Shown: piece by piece, positions 4,615 through 46,138 of the stretch
How the letters are laid out: the number at the start of each line of letters is the position of its first letter
Numbering within the stretch: position 1 is the stretch's first letter
Source: Escherichia phage vB_EcoM_Lutter
Sequence record: NC_054924.1
DNA length: 64,000 bases
Reading direction: 5' to 3' (one strand)
The notes under the pieces: model-generated
Database searches by the model: none
Told to the model about the DNA's origin: nothing
What the model saw: only the letters and a program-made list of their open reading frames with translations
Program-made: the position numbers and the translations under genes

Positions 4615-4988
4615 TTAAATTTAATGGCTTGAAGAAGACTAATAATTCTCAAGCGACTTCTTTCATCTTTAACTGTAAAGGAAAGGGGGTCACCAGATTT
4701 CATAGTGATAGTGCATCCAAAATCAAAATTTTCGGGAACTTCTTCGAAGAAGTCAAATTCTTCAGCATAAATTAGAACATTACTCTGCATACTGTGAAGA
4801 ATTTTTCCGTCATTTCCAGATGCTGTACTAATCATCGTAACATTATGACCTTTCATATCTTCAACGATAAATTCGCTTGTAGATATTACAGCATTAATAG
4901 AACCATTCCTATAAATAGCAGACATTAGATATTTCTTTTCTTCGCCTTCGCGAATACGATACTTCTTACCGATTTTAAACATAATCAC
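4611..4988 (-). CDS. hypothetical protein (39.2 position)
   Basis: 125-aa ORF, start/stop overlap with neighbours. Confidence 0.5.
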   Translation of the reverse strand: MIMFKIGKKYRIREGEEKKYLMSAIYRNGSINAVISTSEFIVEDMKGHNVTMISTASGNDGKILHSMQSNVLIYAEEFDFFEEVPENFDFGCTITMKSGDPLSFTVKDERSRLRIISLLQAIKFK

Positions 4989-5161
4989 CCTTTAAGTAAG
5001 TCGTAAAATCCACCATTCACATGCTTAGGAGCGGAAACTAACCGAATAGCAATCCGATGACAATCAGGACATACATCAGTATCCCTTTCAGAAATTTTCT
5101 TGATTTTTTCGTATTCTTTTGCGCAGTCTTTGGATTGACATTTATAATCATAAAGAGGCAT
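4985..5161 (-). CDS. small zinc-ribbon protein (CxxC...CxxC), 58 aa
   Basis: ORF below the track cutoff found by reading the minus strand: MPLYDYKCQSKDCAKEYEKIKKISERDTDVCPDCHRIA...; fills an otherwise empty gap. Confidence 0.35.
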   Translation of the reverse strand: MPLYDYKCQSKDCAKEYEKIKKISERDTDVCPDCHRIAIRLVSAPKHVNGGFYDLLKG

Positions 5162-5163
5162 AA

Positions 5164-5583
5164 TTATTCCTTAAAGTGAGCTTTCAACATCTGATACAAG
5201 GACCACGCCTGTTCATTATTTTCAATAGTAACTTTCATTACCGGGAATTCTGTGAAATCTTCTATTTGTTCTTGCTCTTCCTGCTCTTGCTCTTCAGCTG
5301 CCTGATATGGATTTTCCACTTCATCAAAGAACCCAGCTTCGTTAGTAGAGAGCCAGATAAAGTTTTCGTCAAGGATATCACCACCGGCACAACGTTTGAG
5401 TACACCTATGGATGTCATAATTTTAGTAGGACGCCCAAGATAATCAGCATCTAAAATTTTAAAAGGTTCCATACCTAAACGCCGCGCATAGATTCCGTTA
5501 TCAGTATGGTCTTTAATAAAATTTTCTTGAGCTTGTTTATTTTTAAATTGATACCATTTATTAACTTCAAATTTAATAGCCAT
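5164..5583 (-). CDS. hypothetical acidic protein (goF/comC-alpha position)
   Basis: 139-aa ORF; name inferred from size and synteny only. Confidence 0.45.
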
Positions 5584-5798
5584 TAATAAATTTCCTTCCA
5601 GTAAGTTGTGCCGTCTTCAGTAATTTCACGAAATACACCGTAAATTGGTTGTTTATCACCGACTTTCTCATACACATAAACAGAAGTCAAGTGAGTAAAC
5701 TTGCTAGTATGTTCCTTTTGAACTACTACCAAATTTGGATCAAATAATACATCTTCAAATTCATCATTAGTGCAATTCTGAACAATTTTACGTTTCAT
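5583..5798 (-). CDS. hypothetical protein (cef position)
   Basis: 71-aa ORF; name inferred from size and synteny only. Confidence 0.45.
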
Positions 5799-5970
5799 TA
5801 CAATTTCCTCATTAATTAAACATTGGAGCGATGCGTTTCAGAAGAGTATCAGCACCTTTAGCGAATTTCCATTTTATTCTCCAAGTTGTTTTCTGTATCA
5901 GTAGTTGATATTGATATAGTACCATAATCAACTACTGATGTATATAGTTTTATGAAAAAAATTTTAAACT

Positions 5971-35256: not shown

Positions 35257-35500
35257 AGTATGCATCCTTAATACAAGATACGGCCATATCTCGCAATGAT
35301 TTAGGTGTGTCATTATCTAAAATGTTGAAGTTAAAAGATACAGCCCAATCTGTACAGACCGTAACTTTTTTAATACAATTATCTTCAACCTCTAGCGGTT
35401 CAAACCAATATTCAATAATTTCTTTATGCCCAATATCATCTTTTACTTCACATTCAAAATGCTGACTCATCATAACATTTTTAAATTCATCAAAAGTCAT
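35237..35500 (-). CDS. hypothetical protein (46.2 position)
   Basis: 87-aa ORF. Confidence 0.4.
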   Translation of the reverse strand: MTFDEFKNVMMSQHFECEVKDDIGHKEIIEYWFEPLEVEDNCIKKVTVCTDWAVSFNFNILDNDTPKSLRDMAVSCIKDAYCEVFDI

Positions 35501-36516
35501 TGTGTTGCCTCTACATATAACTGATTTGCATATTGAATAAGTGCTTCACGGTCAGAATCAGTGATGTCTGGAATTGCATTAATGTATTCTTCCATCAACG
35601 TCTGAAGAGATTGAACTTCAACTTCTTCACTGTCATCTGACTCGACAGAGTTATCAATCTTTGACACAACTCGTAATGAATGCACAACTTTTTCTAGTTC
35701 AGATTCGAACTTCGTCAGATTTTTGTCTACTTCAGTTACTATAACACGTACTGATAGATTTGTAAAATCTTTATAGTCAATTTTTCCTTTAAATGGATAA
35801 TGAATTCTACGATGCCAGGTAGTATTGTTTGGAATAAATTCCATTCGTTCTGTTTCTGTATCAAACATCCAGAACCCACGAGGGTCATTCTCGTCACCTG
35901 CAGTTAGTGTCCATGGTGTCCCAATATATCTGACGTTTGCAGCCTCAGAGATAGTATGGAAGTGACCAGACCACACCTCTTTATAAGTCTTAAGGAAATC
36001 AGGTTCAAGACCGTGAGATTTCATTCCTTTATAAAAATAAAATCCATTCAGTTCCCAGTGACCAACACAAAAAGAAGCAGATGAAGTTTTGATGTGCTCA
36101 AGAATTTCACCAGTATTTTCTTCGCACATCCAAGGAATTAAATCAATTAAACATCCGTCAAAATCGACTGTAGTAGGCTTATCATATACTTTAACATTAG
36201 GATATTTAGCCAAAAGCTCAGTAGAAGCATTTGGATGCATTACATTTTTGTAGTGGAGATCGTGATTTCCTACAATAGTATGTAATGTGATTCCAGCGTC
36301 ATCAAGCATTTGAACTATTTCACGGGCAAACTCCATAGTTTTATGTGTGATTGCTTTTCGCACATCAAAAATATCACCATATTGAATCCATACAGTAATT
36401 CCATTTTTCTTAGAATATTCTATCGCTTGCTTAATTCCATCAATTTGAATACCGCGAATCCACTCATCATCAGCTTTAACGCCTAAATGCCAATCACCCA
36501 AGTTTAGTATTTTCAT
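35497..36516 (-). CDS. 47: recombination endonuclease subunit (Mre11/SbcD-like phosphoesterase)
   Basis: 339-aa ORF with calcineurin-like motifs (DWHLG, GDIFD, GNHD). Confidence 0.9.
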   Translation of the reverse strand: MKILNLGDWHLGVKADDEWIRGIQIDGIKQAIEYSKKNGITVWIQYGDIFDVRKAITHKTMEFAREIVQMLDDAGITLHTIVGNHDLHYKNVMHPNASTELLAKYPNVKVYDKPTTVDFDGCLIDLIPWMCEENTGEILEHIKTSSASFCVGHWELNGFYFYKGMKSHGLEPDFLKTYKEVWSGHFHTISEAANVRYIGTPWTLTAGDENDPRGFWMFDTETERMEFIPNNTTWHRRIHYPFKGKIDYKDFTNLSVRVIVTEVDKNLTKFESELEKVVHSLRVVSKIDNSVESDDSEEVEVQSLQTLMEEYINAIPDITDSDREALIQYANQLYVEATQ

Positions 36517-37117
36517 GGTGTCTTTTCCATCCTAATTTAGCTGCTTTTGAAACCAGTTCTTTAATTTTTCCTTTTGTCCATTCAGGACCAGGAGGTTCAT
36601 GACATAACAATTGCTTAACTCCGTTATTATACCATTTTTTACCTTTATTATGTGATGAAGCTTTAAATTTATTTGACCTTCCTTTTACATAACCTTCTGG
36701 AATATAAGGCAAAAAGGCAGATTTTCCTGTTAATGGATCATGTGAATGTATATTTCCTTTACAATTATGAGAACCATATAATGGATGATTTTGTCCTTTA
36801 TTATCTCTTCCAAATGAACCTTTTGGAGCAGCATATGACATATTAAAGAATAATGGATTTTTAACTGCATCATGCAATCGTTGATAATATAACTCGCATT
36901 TAATAGCTTCTTCACGTGTATCAAATTCAGCTAAAATGCATGAATCAAATAAGTGAGGATTATCTAAAAGCTCTTTATTATAAATTTTCTTATACTTTTT
37001 AGATAAAACTGAACCATGATATCCAGCTAAATGCCTATCTAAAGACGTAGATCCAATATAAAAAGGAGGAAGTTTATCTCCACTATATATTGTTAAATAA
37101 GTTATATATTTTTTCAT
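36494..37117 (-). mobile_element. GIY-YIG (Seg-like) homing endonuclease gene
   Basis: 207-aa ORF with GIY-YIG motif (YITYLTI...FYIGST, R, E) and NUMOD3-like repeats (GQNHPLYG, KGKKWYNNG); 3' end overlaps the start of gene 47 by 23 nt. Confidence 0.6.
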
Positions 37118-37277: not shown

Positions 37278-37296
37278 AAAGGGCCGAAGCCCTTTA
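37278..37296 (-). terminator. UUCG-tetraloop hairpin after a-gt
   Basis: AAAGGGC-CGAA-GCCCTTT inverted repeat overlapping the a-gt stop; same 30-nt module as at 4321..4350. Confidence 0.5.
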
Positions 37297-38496
37297 TTTT
37301 GTAATAATGTCAAACTGTTCTTTAAAGCAGAAGCTTGAATCTTGATGCTGATACAAAAATTCATAAGCTTTTTCGCGTTCACGGTCATAAAGAGCTCGGT
37401 CAGATGACAGTTCTTTAATACGCTCAAATGTTGATTCCATGTCATTTTCATCAAACCAAACGATACCGCTATCATGAGAAATTAACGGAGTATTATCAAC
37501 ACGGAATTTTAAATTTTCACCAGTAGATTTCCAAAATACTGGAATTGTTCCGCATGCACCAAGCTCGAGATGAGTGTATTCTAAAGAACGTTGTAGATAT
37601 TTTTTATCTAATTTACTCAGCTGATAACCAAATCCGGATTTACTCATACGTTCAAGCATTTCGCTATTTACATAACGGTCGAGAATTTGCGTTGACAAAT
37701 TAGGAGCAATTTTAATTTGGTCTACTTGATGAAGACGATAATACTCGTATGGAATTCCTTTTTCTTTAATAGGAATGAACGCTGGAGAACGTTCCAGACC
37801 TTCCATAATAGTACTCAATCCCGCAGGTTTAAGATGTTTTTCATGAAAATCAAACATCTGATAAAAGCCTTTCCATGTAGTAGTACGACCAATCCAACGG
37901 TTGATATTCATGTTAATTTCAGAAACATCTTTCCAGTAGGTTGATCGAACCTTCGCAATATCCATAGGAGGCTGAAAGTTATATACGGTCGGTGCTTCTT
38001 CAATATCATCAAACAGAGAAACTGTTTCTGGATACCATTCTTTCATCAGAACTTTATTAAAATCGCCATTATCAGAATGGCTAAAAATAACATCAGCTCG
38101 ACGAACAGTTTCTTCTAATCCCAAATTTCGGCGCAAAGAAAGAGAAGAATGGTCATGTTGATAAACTACAACACGAACCGAAGGTTTAATGTTATCAATA
38201 ATTTTTTTATAGTTATTAATAGTGTCTTCTTCGACTGAAGTAGCAGGAACTGAATTGATAATTAGAATATCACAATCATTTACCAGCTTAAGTGTTTTAT
38301 CGTATTCTTTTGCCAATAAAACCGGAATTGAAAATGACTTATAATCATGCGCGCAATTACGAGTAAATGATTTATCTTTAGCATAAACCAAAGTTACTTC
38401 ATGACCATTTTTAATAAACCAATCACGTTGCTCAAGAGAAAATTTAGTTACGCCACAACCTTCAAGACCTCGAGCCATAAAAATGCATACTTTCAT
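37294..38496 (-). CDS. a-gt: DNA alpha-glucosyltransferase
   Basis: 400-aa ORF matching T4 alpha-gt in length and N-terminus (CIFMARGLEGCGVTKFSLEQ). Confidence 0.9.
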   Translation of the reverse strand: MKVCIFMARGLEGCGVTKFSLEQRDWFIKNGHEVTLVYAKDKSFTRNCAHDYKSFSIPVLLAKEYDKTLKLVNDCDILIINSVPATSVEEDTINNYKKIIDNIKPSVRVVVYQHDHSSLSLRRNLGLEETVRRADVIFSHSDNGDFNKVLMKEWYPETVSLFDDIEEAPTVYNFQPPMDIAKVRSTYWKDVSEINMNINRWIGRTTTWKGFYQMFDFHEKHLKPAGLSTIMEGLERSPAFIPIKEKGIPYEYYRLHQVDQIKIAPNLSTQILDRYVNSEMLERMSKSGFGYQLSKLDKKYLQRSLEYTHLELGACGTIPVFWKSTGENLKFRVDNTPLISHDSGIVWFDENDMESTFERIKELSSDRALYDREREKAYEFLYQHQDSSFCFKEQFDIITK

Positions 38497-42530: not shown

Positions 42531-43001
42531 TTAATCATGTTTCCACACCCCATCGGTATTTGACCAAAGCCGCTGATTATCTGATCCTCGCCACAGCTTT
42601 TTAGTCGGAAGATTTTTCTCATACTTCCCATCAATAATAACATCAACATATTTAAGCATTTCTAGCTGTTTAACATCTTCAAACTTATATCCTGTCCACA
42701 ACCAAATGCTTTTATTGGGATAAAGATTTTTTACTGTTTGAACAATGCAATGAATAACATCTCGGTTATCAGGATAGAGAGGGTCACCTCCAGTTATAGT
42801 CAATCCTTCTATATAATCATTATTCAAACATTCAATTAATTGCTCTAGTGTTTCACCAGTGAATGGAACGCCATTTCTAGCGTTCCATGTTGATTTATTA
42901 TAACACCCTTCACATTTATGCAAACAACCTGTAACGAAAAGAACGACCCTGCATCCAGGGCCATTCACAAAATCGCAAGGATAAAATCTATCATAATTCA
43001 T
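42531..43001 (-). CDS. nrdG: anaerobic ribonucleotide reductase activating protein (radical SAM)
   Basis: 156-aa ORF with CxxxCxxC cluster (CLHKCEGC). Confidence 0.9.
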   Translation of the reverse strand: MNYDRFYPCDFVNGPGCRVVLFVTGCLHKCEGCYNKSTWNARNGVPFTGETLEQLIECLNNDYIEGLTITGGDPLYPDNRDVIHCIVQTVKNLYPNKSIWLWTGYKFEDVKQLEMLKYVDVIIDGKYEKNLPTKKLWRGSDNQRLWSNTDGVWKHD

Positions 43002-44815
43002 TGGTGTTTAACCCTATGCATGATTTCTTTATTTTTGCCGAGATTAAATCCACGTTCGTTCGGATTTCCCAAATAACCACAAGTTCTTCTTATTGTGTTC
43101 ATCTTTTTAGGATCAGTTTCTCCACAAATAGAACAAACAAACCCGTTTTCAGTAGGAGTCATTTCATGGGTACTTCCGCATGTAAAACACTTATCTACTG
43201 GCATATTAACACCAAAATAATCTAAATGCTGTGCAGCATAATCCCACACGGCCTCAAGACCTTTTAGGTTATTTTTCATATCAGGAAGTTCAACATAAGA
43301 AATGTGACCACCTGTCGCAATGAAATGATATGGCGCTTCACGAGAAATCTTTTCAAACGGAGTAATATTTTCTTCTACTGAAACATGGAAACTATTAGTG
43401 TACCAGCCTTTATCAGTAACATCCTTTACACTTCCATATTTCTCAGTATCAAGTTTACAGAAGCGATAGCACAGGTTTTCAGCAGGAGTAGAATACAAGC
43501 TAAAAGCAAAACCAGTTCTTTCAGTCCACTGCTTAAGACGAGCATTCATTTTAGTTAAAATTTCTCGTCCAATATCACGACCGACAAGAATATTCAATTC
43601 GTGAATACCAATGTATCCTAGGGACACTGAACTTCTACCGTTTTTAAATAACTCAATTATGTCGTCATCAGGTTTAAGACGAACCCCGAATGCACCTTCT
43701 TGGTAAAGAATAGGAGCAACAGTAGCTTTAACTCCTTTTAAGGAACTAATTCTACACATCAAAGCTTCAAAACATAAATCCATTCGTTCATTAAATAGCT
43801 CAACAAATTTCTGTTCATTGAATTGTGTTCCAATATAAGAATCTAACGCGATGCGAGGAAGATTCAGTGTTACAACACCAAGATTATTACGTCCATCAAG
43901 AATTTCATTACCAGTCGAATCTTTCCATACGCTCAAGAAACTACGGCAACCCATTGGAGAAACAGGAACAGATGAACCGGTGATAGCTTTATTGTTCTTA
44001 GCTGAAATAATATCAGGATACATTCTTTTGCTTGCACACTCTAGAGCAAGCTGCTTAATATCATAGTTCGGATCGTCTTTGTAAAGATTAACGCCTTCTT
44101 CGACGAACATAACAAGCTTAGGAAAAATAGGAGTTATCCCATCACGACCGAGACCTTTAATGCGGTTTTTAAGAATTGCCTTCTGAATCATTCGTTCAGT
44201 CCAGTCAGTTCCCGTACCAAATGTAATTGTTACAAAAGGAGTCTGTCCGTTTGAACTAAAGAGAGTATTTACTTCATATTCATAAGCTTGGAATGCATCG
44301 TATACGTCTTTTTCTGTTTTAGATTGAGCATAATTCAACGCATCAGCGATTTGCCATTTTTCTGCATCCTCAATATGTTTTGCATAGGTGCGTTTAACAT
44401 AAGGAGAAAGTACTTTATCTACATTCGCAAAAGTCGTTCCGCCATATTGGTGAGAAGCAACCTGTGCAGTAATTTGTGCCATAATTGCAGTAGCAACGCC
44501 AATTGATTTAGGAGTTTCAATCTGTGCATTACCTAGCTTAAATCCATTCTCAAGCATCCCCTTTAAATCTACTAAACAACAATTAGTAAAGGGCAATGAT
44601 ATACTGTAATCTAAATCATGAAAATGAATTAATCCAACATTATGGGCATTTACAATATGACTTGGAAGAATACGACAAGCGATATGTTTAGAAACAATAC
44701 CGGCCATTAAATCTCTTTTTGTTGGAAAGACACGAGAATCTTTGTTGGCGTTTTCGGTATTTAATTCTTTATCTTTATTTGAAATAAAATTTAAAACATC
44801 TTTCTCTAAAGACAT
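42998..44815 (-). CDS. nrdD: anaerobic ribonucleoside-triphosphate reductase, intronless
   Basis: 605-aa continuous ORF with C-terminal glycyl radical motif (RRTCGYLG) and zinc ribbon. Confidence 0.9.
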   Translation of the reverse strand: MSLEKDVLNFISNKDKELNTENANKDSRVFPTKRDLMAGIVSKHIACRILPSHIVNAHNVGLIHFHDLDYSISLPFTNCCLVDLKGMLENGFKLGNAQIETPKSIGVATAIMAQITAQVASHQYGGTTFANVDKVLSPYVKRTYAKHIEDAEKWQIADALNYAQSKTEKDVYDAFQAYEYEVNTLFSSNGQTPFVTITFGTGTDWTERMIQKAILKNRIKGLGRDGITPIFPKLVMFVEEGVNLYKDDPNYDIKQLALECASKRMYPDIISAKNNKAITGSSVPVSPMGCRSFLSVWKDSTGNEILDGRNNLGVVTLNLPRIALDSYIGTQFNEQKFVELFNERMDLCFEALMCRISSLKGVKATVAPILYQEGAFGVRLKPDDDIIELFKNGRSSVSLGYIGIHELNILVGRDIGREILTKMNARLKQWTERTGFAFSLYSTPAENLCYRFCKLDTEKYGSVKDVTDKGWYTNSFHVSVEENITPFEKISREAPYHFIATGGHISYVELPDMKNNLKGLEAVWDYAAQHLDYFGVNMPVDKCFTCGSTHEMTPTENGFVCSICGETDPKKMNTIRRTCGYLGNPNERGFNLGKNKEIMHRVKHQ

Positions 44816-45627
44816 AATTCTAATTTATCCTTTTGAAATTCTTCGTCTAAATATGGGTTCCAACCCATTTTAAACCTTTTGATGAAATTATCAATTCTAA
44901 ATTTCGGTAAGTTTAAATCCGCAAAAATAGATGATTTACTTTTAAAATCTGGACCTAAATAATCATATAAAATTTCTGCGTATTTTAACCATAATATACA
45001 AGTACCAGATTTAATTGCGTTCGGATGTTTCCAAGGTTTTACACCATACATCGGATTTCCACTTCCTTTATGCCTGATAGAAGATGAAATTCCAATTTTA
45101 ATTTTAGCTTCCTTTGTATGCGAAAATCCACGATGCGGATTTTCTTTCCAGTATTTTTTAGAAGCTTCTGATATTTTCTTTCTGGCTAAATTAGTATGAT
45201 GCTTTCCATAAAATCCATGATTTTTGCCTTTATTACGATTTCTTTTAATCATGGTTATTGATTGCTTTTCTCTAGTTTCTTTAGAAGGAGAAACACCGTA
45301 CGTTGTAAATTGACCATCAGCATATGCTAAATTAAAATACTCTTTATTCCATACATCTTTTTCTATATTCTTTTGAAATTCAGCTTCAATGCTAGTTATT
45401 TGTTCATCTCCGACTAATTGAAAATATAATATTTCAACTTTCGGCGTTTCTTTCAATAAGGCTTTTTGAAATTCGGAAGATGACGAAGACGAATAATAAA
45501 ATTTACCATTTTTATCAATAATATTCGTTCCATCAAAAGTGCAATTGGTTTTACTTCCAATGTAATAATATGGTGGGGTTTTAGCATTAATTCTATTAAT
45601 AAATGATAGTTTATATACTACGTTCAT
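44806..45627 (-). mobile_element. GIY-YIG (Seg-like) homing endonuclease gene
   Basis: 273-aa ORF with GIY-YIG-like N-terminus (VYKLSF...YYIGSKT) and NUMOD3-like repeats (GKNHGFYG, SGNPMYG); between nrdD and 49. Confidence 0.6.
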
Positions 45628-46097
45628 TTTAAACTCTTTCTAAGCTGCTTCTTAAATGAAGCTATTAACTGTGTTTTGGTGTCAGATTCATTATATTCAA
45701 ATCCTCTTTGAAGCATCTCGGCCATCATTTCCTCTTTTCCTAAACGAGAAAATTCCTTTGATTTATCTCCAACAAAGTTAGGGTGAATATTATTTTGGGT
45801 GTAATCGGATTTTAAATAAGTAAGTAAATTTTCTAACCATTCAAGATAATCAACACCTTGTCCCTTTAAGCCAGAACGATTAAATTTATGTTTCATTTGA
45901 CCTTCTGCGGCATTGCAGAGATTACAAAGCAATCCACGTACCTTTCCTGCTTTTGGTCCATTTAATTCATGGTCATGGTCGAGGTGATTAGCTTGAACAT
46001 CAGGATTTAGTTCTCGTTGGCAAATTAAGCATTTACCGTTTTGTGCATCATAAAATTTCTGTTTTTCTTCTTTATATAATTTGCCAGTCAATAACAT
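45624..46097 (-). CDS. 49: endonuclease VII (Holliday junction resolvase)
   Basis: 157-aa ORF with zinc-binding and H-N-H-like core (CLICQRE...HLDHDHE...CNLCN). Confidence 0.9.
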   Translation of the reverse strand: MLLTGKLYKEEKQKFYDAQNGKCLICQRELNPDVQANHLDHDHELNGPKAGKVRGLLCNLCNAAEGQMKHKFNRSGLKGQGVDYLEWLENLLTYLKSDYTQNNIHPNFVGDKSKEFSRLGKEEMMAEMLQRGFEYNESDTKTQLIASFKKQLRKSLK

Positions 46098-46138
46098 AAT
46101 AAACCCTTACCTTAAATAGATAAGGGTATTTATTATTT

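Follow-up and report, generated by a model that had tools for sequence, protein, structure and literature searches.

The stretch of DNA analysed here, referred to below as the window, comprises 64,000 nt of the genome of Escherichia phage vB_EcoM_Lutter (NC_054924.1) and carries a free-standing homing endonuclease gene (HEG) between gene 49 and nrdD. The phage is a Tequatrovirus, about 97% identical to several others in GenBank and identical to none of these. The HEG (44806..45627, minus strand) belongs to the SegG clade as a so far uncharacterised member and occupies a locus left empty in T4. It begins with ATG, encodes 273 aa, and is flanked by gene 49, encoding endonuclease VII (45624..46097, minus strand; Pfam Endonuclease_7, 5.4e-22, and Endonuc-dimeris, 1.5e-33; 97.4% identity to T4), and by an intronless nrdD, encoding the 605 aa large subunit of anaerobic ribonucleotide reductase (42998..44815, minus strand; Pfam NRDD, 5.7e-171, and Gly_radical, 1.3e-25; collinear with the T4 exons). 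The minus-strand order in the direction of transcription is gene 49, HEG, nrdD, nrdG. The original prediction for this DNA had described a free-standing open reading frame (ORF) of this length, overlapping the nrdD start by 10 nt, and both points are exact; it had also placed the HEG immediately downstream of nrdD, but in the direction of transcription the HEG lies upstream.

The junctions on either side are compact. The ATG of the HEG and the TGA stop codon of gene 49 share 4 nt (ATGA), and the TAG stop codon of the HEG lies 10 nt inside nrdD. T4, T2 and the Mosigvirus O157tp3 have no gene at this position, their gene 49 and nrdD being joined directly by an ATGA overlap, and the ATG of the HEG occupies the position at which nrdD starts in these HEG-less phages.

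The distribution of the HEG among related phages is sporadic. Matches to the flanks of the locus occur in about 690 phage records, of which 47 hold the HEG in place, always between gene 49 and nrdD. By tblastn, 48 records contain it with an identity of at least 90%, and the next matches fall below 60%. The carriers belong to Tequatrovirus and Mosigvirus, with hosts in Escherichia, Shigella, Salmonella and Yersinia, and about 45 records have a full-length ORF with 97–99% aa identity. Two HEG-positive phages, Pu-Krd-SF3 and Pu-Krd-SF4 (PQ249397, PQ759884), have a locus span that is 1 nt longer and a HEG that aligns over 266 aa only, at 91% identity, which looks like a C-terminal frameshift variant. 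The IMG/VR and JGI metagenomes were scanned for intermediate relatives at the same locus; no further intermediates were found at 49/nrdD in these scans, only near-identical copies or SegG-like genes elsewhere. The gene lies in no intron or intein, occurs at one fixed locus and is found in some close relatives but not in others, as is typical of a free-standing HEG.

Presence of the HEG coincides with a rewritten start of nrdD. The first 223 nt of nrdD (codons 1–74; 44593..44815, minus strand) show about 63% nt identity to the alleles of T2, T4, Mosigvirus and every other HEG-less phage, whereas the rest of the gene is 96% identical to T2 and T4; 28 of the 74 residues are changed. GC content is 29.1% in the recoded segment and 28.9% in the HEG, compared with 37.1% in the remainder of nrdD and 34% in the window. 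The recoded allele was found in 48 records at 95% identity or more, the same number as for the HEG, while 937 records carry an allele of 60–80% identity; in 47 records the HEG and the recoded segment were covered by a single continuous match.

The borders of this combined segment are sharp. On the left, the border is exactly the ATGA, and gene 49 carries no HEG-linked changes, its 3′ end being identical in type in HEG-positive and HEG-negative phages. On the right, the border falls directly before TTTACTAATTG (codons for PFTNCC) in 5/5 HEG-positive phages aligned, and beyond it every HEG-positive phage returns to the sequence of its own genus. Because of these two borders, the mobile unit can be delimited as a putative cassette of about 1.03 kb (window ~44593–45623), consisting of the HEG and 74 rewritten nrdD codons. 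Comparison of the window (a Tequatrovirus) with the Mosigvirus phage 55, segment by segment, gave identities of 77.4% for the 5′ part of gene 49, 92.9% for its last 112 nt, 98.9% for the HEG, 100% for nrdD nt 1–223 and 91.1% for nrdD nt 224–816. To judge from these values, the cassette has been transferred recently, across genera and independently of its flanks. The last 112 nt of gene 49 (45628..45739, minus strand) are 92.9–100% identical across genera, compared with 77% for the rest of the gene, and would serve as a left homology arm. One reason for this conservation could be that nrdD has its promoter and translation-start region here; another could be homogenisation via repeated homing.

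The interpretation that we consider probable is that the gene specifies a SegG-clade homing endonuclease whose cleavage target is the 5′ part of the HEG-less nrdD, and that the 1.03 kb cassette spreads by double-strand-break repair. SegG and SegF make their cuts hundreds of bp away from their insertion sites. By analogy with SegG and SegF (PMC2988022), in a mixed infection the enzyme would cut the HEG-less nrdD within the first ~230 bp, most likely around nt 165–230. The break would be resected and then repaired from the HEG-positive genome, the homology arms being the conserved gene 49 end on one side and, on the other, nrdD from about codon 75 onwards. Repair would bring in the HEG together with the recoded nrdD 5′ segment, which is presumably uncleavable and would protect carriers; the segment would thereby represent an immunity or replacement tract spanning the target region. 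Intronless homing and marker exclusion of this type are described for SegG and SegF in T4 × T2 crosses (PMC2988022).

Either nrdD or gene 49 had been proposed as the target. Of the two, nrdD appears the likelier, since the HEG is fully linked to the recoded nrdD start, while the 3′ end of gene 49 is the same with or without it. For SegH and Hef, Sandegren et al. (2005) reportedly found cleavage of the enzymes' own DNA as well. If the present enzyme likewise cut HEG-positive and HEG-negative genomes alike, in gene 49 or elsewhere, recoding would be irrelevant to immunity; such an arrangement is highly improbable, as gene 49 shows no HEG-linked polymorphisms and the complete linkage to the recoded nrdD segment would be left unexplained.

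In occupying its position, the HEG would have acquired, from the start of nrdD in HEG-less phages, the ATG/ATGA junction as well as the ribosome-binding region. This region lies in the end of gene 49, where it serves nrdD in those phages and the HEG here, making it probable that translation of the HEG is coupled to that of gene 49. The end of gene 49 also holds a candidate MotA-type middle promoter, from which the HEG may be transcribed, with a box at 45709–45718 (TGCTTCA), a 13 nt spacer and TATAAT at 45690–45695, as judged by comparison with the MotA middle-promoter consensus (PMC2988021). A scan for sigma-70 promoters and terminators returned counts at chance level. At its other end, the HEG would provide nrdD with a new ATG and a new Shine-Dalgarno-like sequence: the final codons CAA AAG GAT (...FQKD, conserved) give AAGGA ahead of the new nrdD ATG. 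A modest RNA structure covers this new start (z = −2.3), while an RNA hairpin hiding the ribosome-binding site of the HEG, as in I-TevI and segB, was not significant (z = −1.5).

The HEG protein has three parts: a catalytic domain at the N-terminus, a linker that holds two NUMOD3 modules, and a C-terminal domain of the SegG type. The original prediction had called it a Seg-like GIY-YIG/NUMOD3 endonuclease, and the NUMOD3 part was readily recovered by Pfam (PF07460, 5.5e-8, 33.1 bits against a gathering cut-off of 20.4, in two stretches). The linker (aa ~115–195; 45043..45285, minus strand) is, relative to SegG-type proteins, an insertion of about 76–85 aa. Membership of the GIY-YIG family was detected solely with a profile of the clade, built from an alignment of 25 homologues (A1); the Pfam GIY-YIG model (PF01541) gave no match to the protein at E ≤ 1. 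This profile matched the catalytic domain of I-TevI (1LN0, E = 1.3e-6; 1MK0, 2.1e-5) and the NUMOD3-type region of the I-TevI DNA-binding domain (1I3J, 6.2e-5), the latter match falling in the linker. The single protein matched PHROG 7504, 'homing endonuclease' (7e-34), and gave nothing relevant by phmmer against the PDB; Foldseek with the whole model gave no match.

The catalytic GIY-YIG domain spans aa 1 to ~105 (45313..45627, minus strand) and contains VVY (3–5), YIG (22–24), E81 and N99. These align to I-TevI with Y5 at Y6, Y22 at Y17, G24 at G19, E81 at E75 and N99 at N90. E81 and N99 are invariant in 25/25 homologues, and Y5, Y22 and G24 are kept in 24, the remaining one being truncated at its N-terminus. 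The distance between the tyrosine of 'GIY' and Tyr-x-Gly falls within 10–17 residues, and the protein has the alpha/beta fold of the family; in the AlphaFold model, pLDDT exceeds 94 for residues 1–100, except for residues 71–80 (~83). Two basic residues are specific to the clade: R12, in a clade-specific helix, is conserved in 21 of the 25 homologues, and K26 in 20. Either might substitute for the canonical arginine of the family.

Seg-like ancestry is clear. T4 SegG is 40% identical over aa 1–126 (BLASTP, 4e-27), and it has the same configuration of catalytic motifs. A SegG-like protein (P0004) covers 97% of the query at 5e-30; together with P0005 (both ~210 aa), it aligns with the HEG product from end to end apart from the NUMOD3 linker, where there is a gap of 76 residues. 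The C-terminal domain (aa ~196–273; 44809..45042, minus strand) is a putative DNA-binding domain with the motifs PWKxP and GWNPYLDxEFQK, and aligns with P0004, P0005 and the C-terminus of T4 SegG. Because it sits at 49/nrdD and not at 59/32, the gene is a paralogue of segG at another locus, not segG itself. The GenBank record of JK42 labels it 'SegG', other records as a hypothetical protein and many as a generic 'homing endonuclease'; no paper describing it was found in a literature search. A further relative (P0003; L008 5001–5822), also of 273 aa, is 56% identical to the catalytic half of the protein but differs in the C-terminal half, and is located between gp5 and a gp5.1-like gene on another T4-like contig. 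This half-match at a different locus suggests that catalytic and DNA-binding modules may have been shuffled among Seg-type genes.

The nearest non-identical homologue (P0002, 57% aa identity) is encoded on L007, a metagenomic contig of 4.7 kb. The phage of origin is a distant T4-like one, its gp49 being 64% and its NrdD 68% identical to the proteins of the window. The gene order on this contig is gene 49, a 5′ remnant of nrdD of 55 codons, the HEG, and a complete nrdD. The remnant is of the T4-like type (FPTQRDL) and begins at the native ATGA, leaving the 49/nrdD junction intact; the HEG is joined to the remnant by another ATGA, and the ATG of the complete nrdD overlaps the HEG stop codon by 16 nt. 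The L007 HEG has a +1 frameshift after codon ~47 (L007 2480–2500), splitting it into ORFs of 50 and 222 aa, which could be due to decay or to an assembly error. The cassette-borne nrdD 5′ end of L007 shows 69% nt identity to the recoded allele of the window and 62% to T2, and the sequences ELNTENANKD, FPTKRD and HDLDY are shared by the L007 and window nrdD starts; further downstream, the L007 nrdD is equally far from the window and from T2 (72–73%). From this gene order and these similarities, the HEG may form an old unit with the nrdD start that it supplies, and this unit would originally have entered at about codon 55 of a resident nrdD. The lineage represented by the window would then have lost the remnant, so that its HEG stands on the native start codon. 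The place of the remnant also speaks for a target within the first part of nrdD.

Several observations weigh against reading the gene as an active endonuclease gene aimed at nrdD. In the protein, besides the failure of the Pfam model, the canonical catalytic arginine (R27 in I-TevI) has no counterpart, the aligned residue being D32; aa 29–44 are predicted by the model to form short beta strands, not helix alpha1; and the C-terminal domain is modelled with low confidence. The MotA-type promoter is a consensus match only. The remnant argument draws on one metagenomic contig with a frameshifted HEG, and no close relative of this contig was present in the phage collection (best, 68%). Lastly, the fixed right border would be equally expected if the target were the 49/nrdD junction, there being no resolution inside DNA of 63% identity.

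The absent R27 counterpart, the lack of a Pfam GIY-YIG match and the frameshifted copies (L007 and Pu-Krd-SF3/SF4) would suit a relic that is decaying or has lost its catalytic activity, or else a DNA-binding protein that has been domesticated; the gene would then be kept only since it supplies the translation start of nrdD and is difficult to delete. We regard this as very unlikely given the full-length, nearly identical ORF in about 45 records, the apparent recent transfer across genera and the invariant or nearly invariant catalytic Tyr/Tyr/Gly/Glu/Asn residues. Moreover, the motif configuration that lacks an R27 equivalent is also that of T4 SegG, and the T4 literature credits this enzyme with homing activity and with promoting marker exclusion (PMC2988022).

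The 49/nrdD junction is another possible target. The same endonuclease might recognise the native junction, which is disrupted by the insertion in the classical manner, and the recoded 223 nt would then be donor DNA that hitch-hiked when the HEG was first acquired and cannot be lost, as recombination does not resolve within it. The HEG does start exactly at the native nrdD ATG, the conserved last 112 nt of gene 49 would be suitable as a widely shared half-site, and the fixed right border would follow from missing homology alone. This scheme is nevertheless unlikely: in L007, albeit a single contig, the HEG follows codon 55 of the resident nrdD and the junction is intact, and SegG and SegF cleave inside the neighbouring gene, as indicated by PMC2988022 and by the title of its reference 39. 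A more far-reaching proposal can be offered, tentatively and with somewhat less than even confidence. The cassette may be a self-contained combination of an endonuclease and a recoded start of its target gene: it would capture the start codon and ribosome-binding site of nrdD for the nuclease, give nrdD a substitute start, and confer immunity through the rewritten codons. The combination would have stayed together from a time before the window and L007 lineages separated (57% aa identity), and the SegG clade may use R12 in place of the alpha1 arginine.

In T4, nrdD is interrupted by a group I intron, and the HEG of the window had been seen by the original prediction as a case of intronless homing at the same locus. 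The 605-codon frame is indeed continuous, and alignment with the T4 exons confirmed a precise absence of the intron (~1.03 kb) between 44277 and 44280, with contiguous exons. The empty site (nrdD nt ~537–538; 44277..44280, minus strand) is defined by a BLAST junction to T4 (L001 4815/5851) and by columns 500–572 of alignment A4, and its flanks are identical to those of intronless T2. The T4 nrdD (sunY) intron encodes I-TevII, not I-TevIII as had been stated, the latter belonging to nrdB (PMC2988022, Table 1). The distribution and flanks of the HEG fit intronless homing, but the tie to the intron does not hold: the intron site (nt ~538) is ~310 bp beyond the cassette, and the HEG and an nrdD intron occur together in five phages (Manna, G8, fPS-2, Lv5cm and F26). 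Mutual exclusion of the two was rejected for the same reason, an intron being present in 7 of the 47 HEG-positive records compared with ~10% of all records. Because they co-occur, the HEG and the nrdD intron are independent elements, and it would be wrong to see the former as an intronless replacement of the latter.

Two variants of the nrdD intron are present in the collection, a T4 type in 25 records and a JK45 type in 44. Manna, G8 and fPS-2 have an insertion of T4-intron length (span 2834), and Lv5cm and F26 the JK45 type. When the two introns (L005 (JK45) 1225–2205 and L001 (T4) 4830–5840) were used in megablast searches, the sets of matching records were almost disjoint, with two weak cross-matches of 80–90%. 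Their exon flanks also differ, CCAGGCGTATGAGT versus CCAAGCTTATGA.

Other features of the window are related to this locus. The gene nrdG (42531..43001, minus strand; Pfam Fer4_12, 2.6e-48) overlaps the nrdD stop codon by 4 nt (42998..43001). This junction is a known HEG insertion site, at which the T4 annotation places mobC; in the window, mobC and segH are absent from it. A second Seg-like gene is present, as had been noted: it encodes 207 aa (36494..37117, minus strand), matches the N-terminal profile of the SegG clade (7.5e-12) and, weakly and slightly below the cut-off, Pfam GIY-YIG (3e-4). It sits between gene 47 (Metallophos, 35497..36516) and an alpha-glucosyltransferase gene (37294..38496), near the site of the T4 HNH gene mobB. 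Immediately upstream of the ATG of gene 49 there is a 10 bp stem-loop followed by a T-rich run (46103..46127, minus strand), the sole terminator-like match of the scan. It may be the hairpin described for regulation of gene 49 in T4.

The locus is a cleanly delimited natural case of a free-standing HEG coexisting with a useful host gene, with borders that are sharp to within a few bases, and, given the recoded segment, the cleavage site can be sought within ~230 bp. It indicates that selfish elements have exploited the nrdD gene of T-even phages at three separate positions, namely at the intron site and at its junctions with gene 49 and with nrdG. When T4-like phages are crossed or combined in a cocktail, the HEG would be expected to give localised marker exclusion. 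The current understanding of homing endonucleases is unchanged by it; as an illustration of how such genes spread, it is ordinary but clear.

Among known systems, the closest is T4 SegG, a free-standing gene between genes 59 and 32. The two proteins share the clade signature MNxVY...R12...KTPPYYYIGSK...E...YFN and a homologous C-terminal domain (PWK..., GW.P..D.E), and both genes are promoter-less cassettes placed between two conserved genes, with an expected action on the downstream neighbour gene of HEG-less phages. The HEG product is longer by ~63 aa, through the two-NUMOD3 insertion, and its locus is 49/nrdD rather than 59/32, SegG cleaving in gene 32. Unlike segG, the HEG brings a replacement 5′ end for the downstream gene and sits on that gene's own start codon. 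I-TevI, the td intron endonuclease (1LN0/1MK0, 1I3J), is a more distant comparison: the HEG is not intron-encoded, R27, H31 and helix alpha1 of I-TevI have no aligned counterpart in it, and it has an extra helix at aa 10–15, with the conserved R12, and a different C-terminal domain. The SegF/gene 56 system resembles it in having a free-standing GIY-YIG gene beside a conserved nucleotide-metabolism gene with a diverged allele in the HEG-positive phage, and in localised co-conversion as the predicted outcome (PMC2988022); here, however, the recoded tract has sharp limits (223 nt) and occurs in two phage genera. The I-TevII/nrdD (sunY) intron and mobC/segH are likewise selfish elements that use nrdD, and I-TevII is also a GIY-YIG enzyme (PMC2988022), but the intron lies ~310 bp past the end of the HEG cassette.

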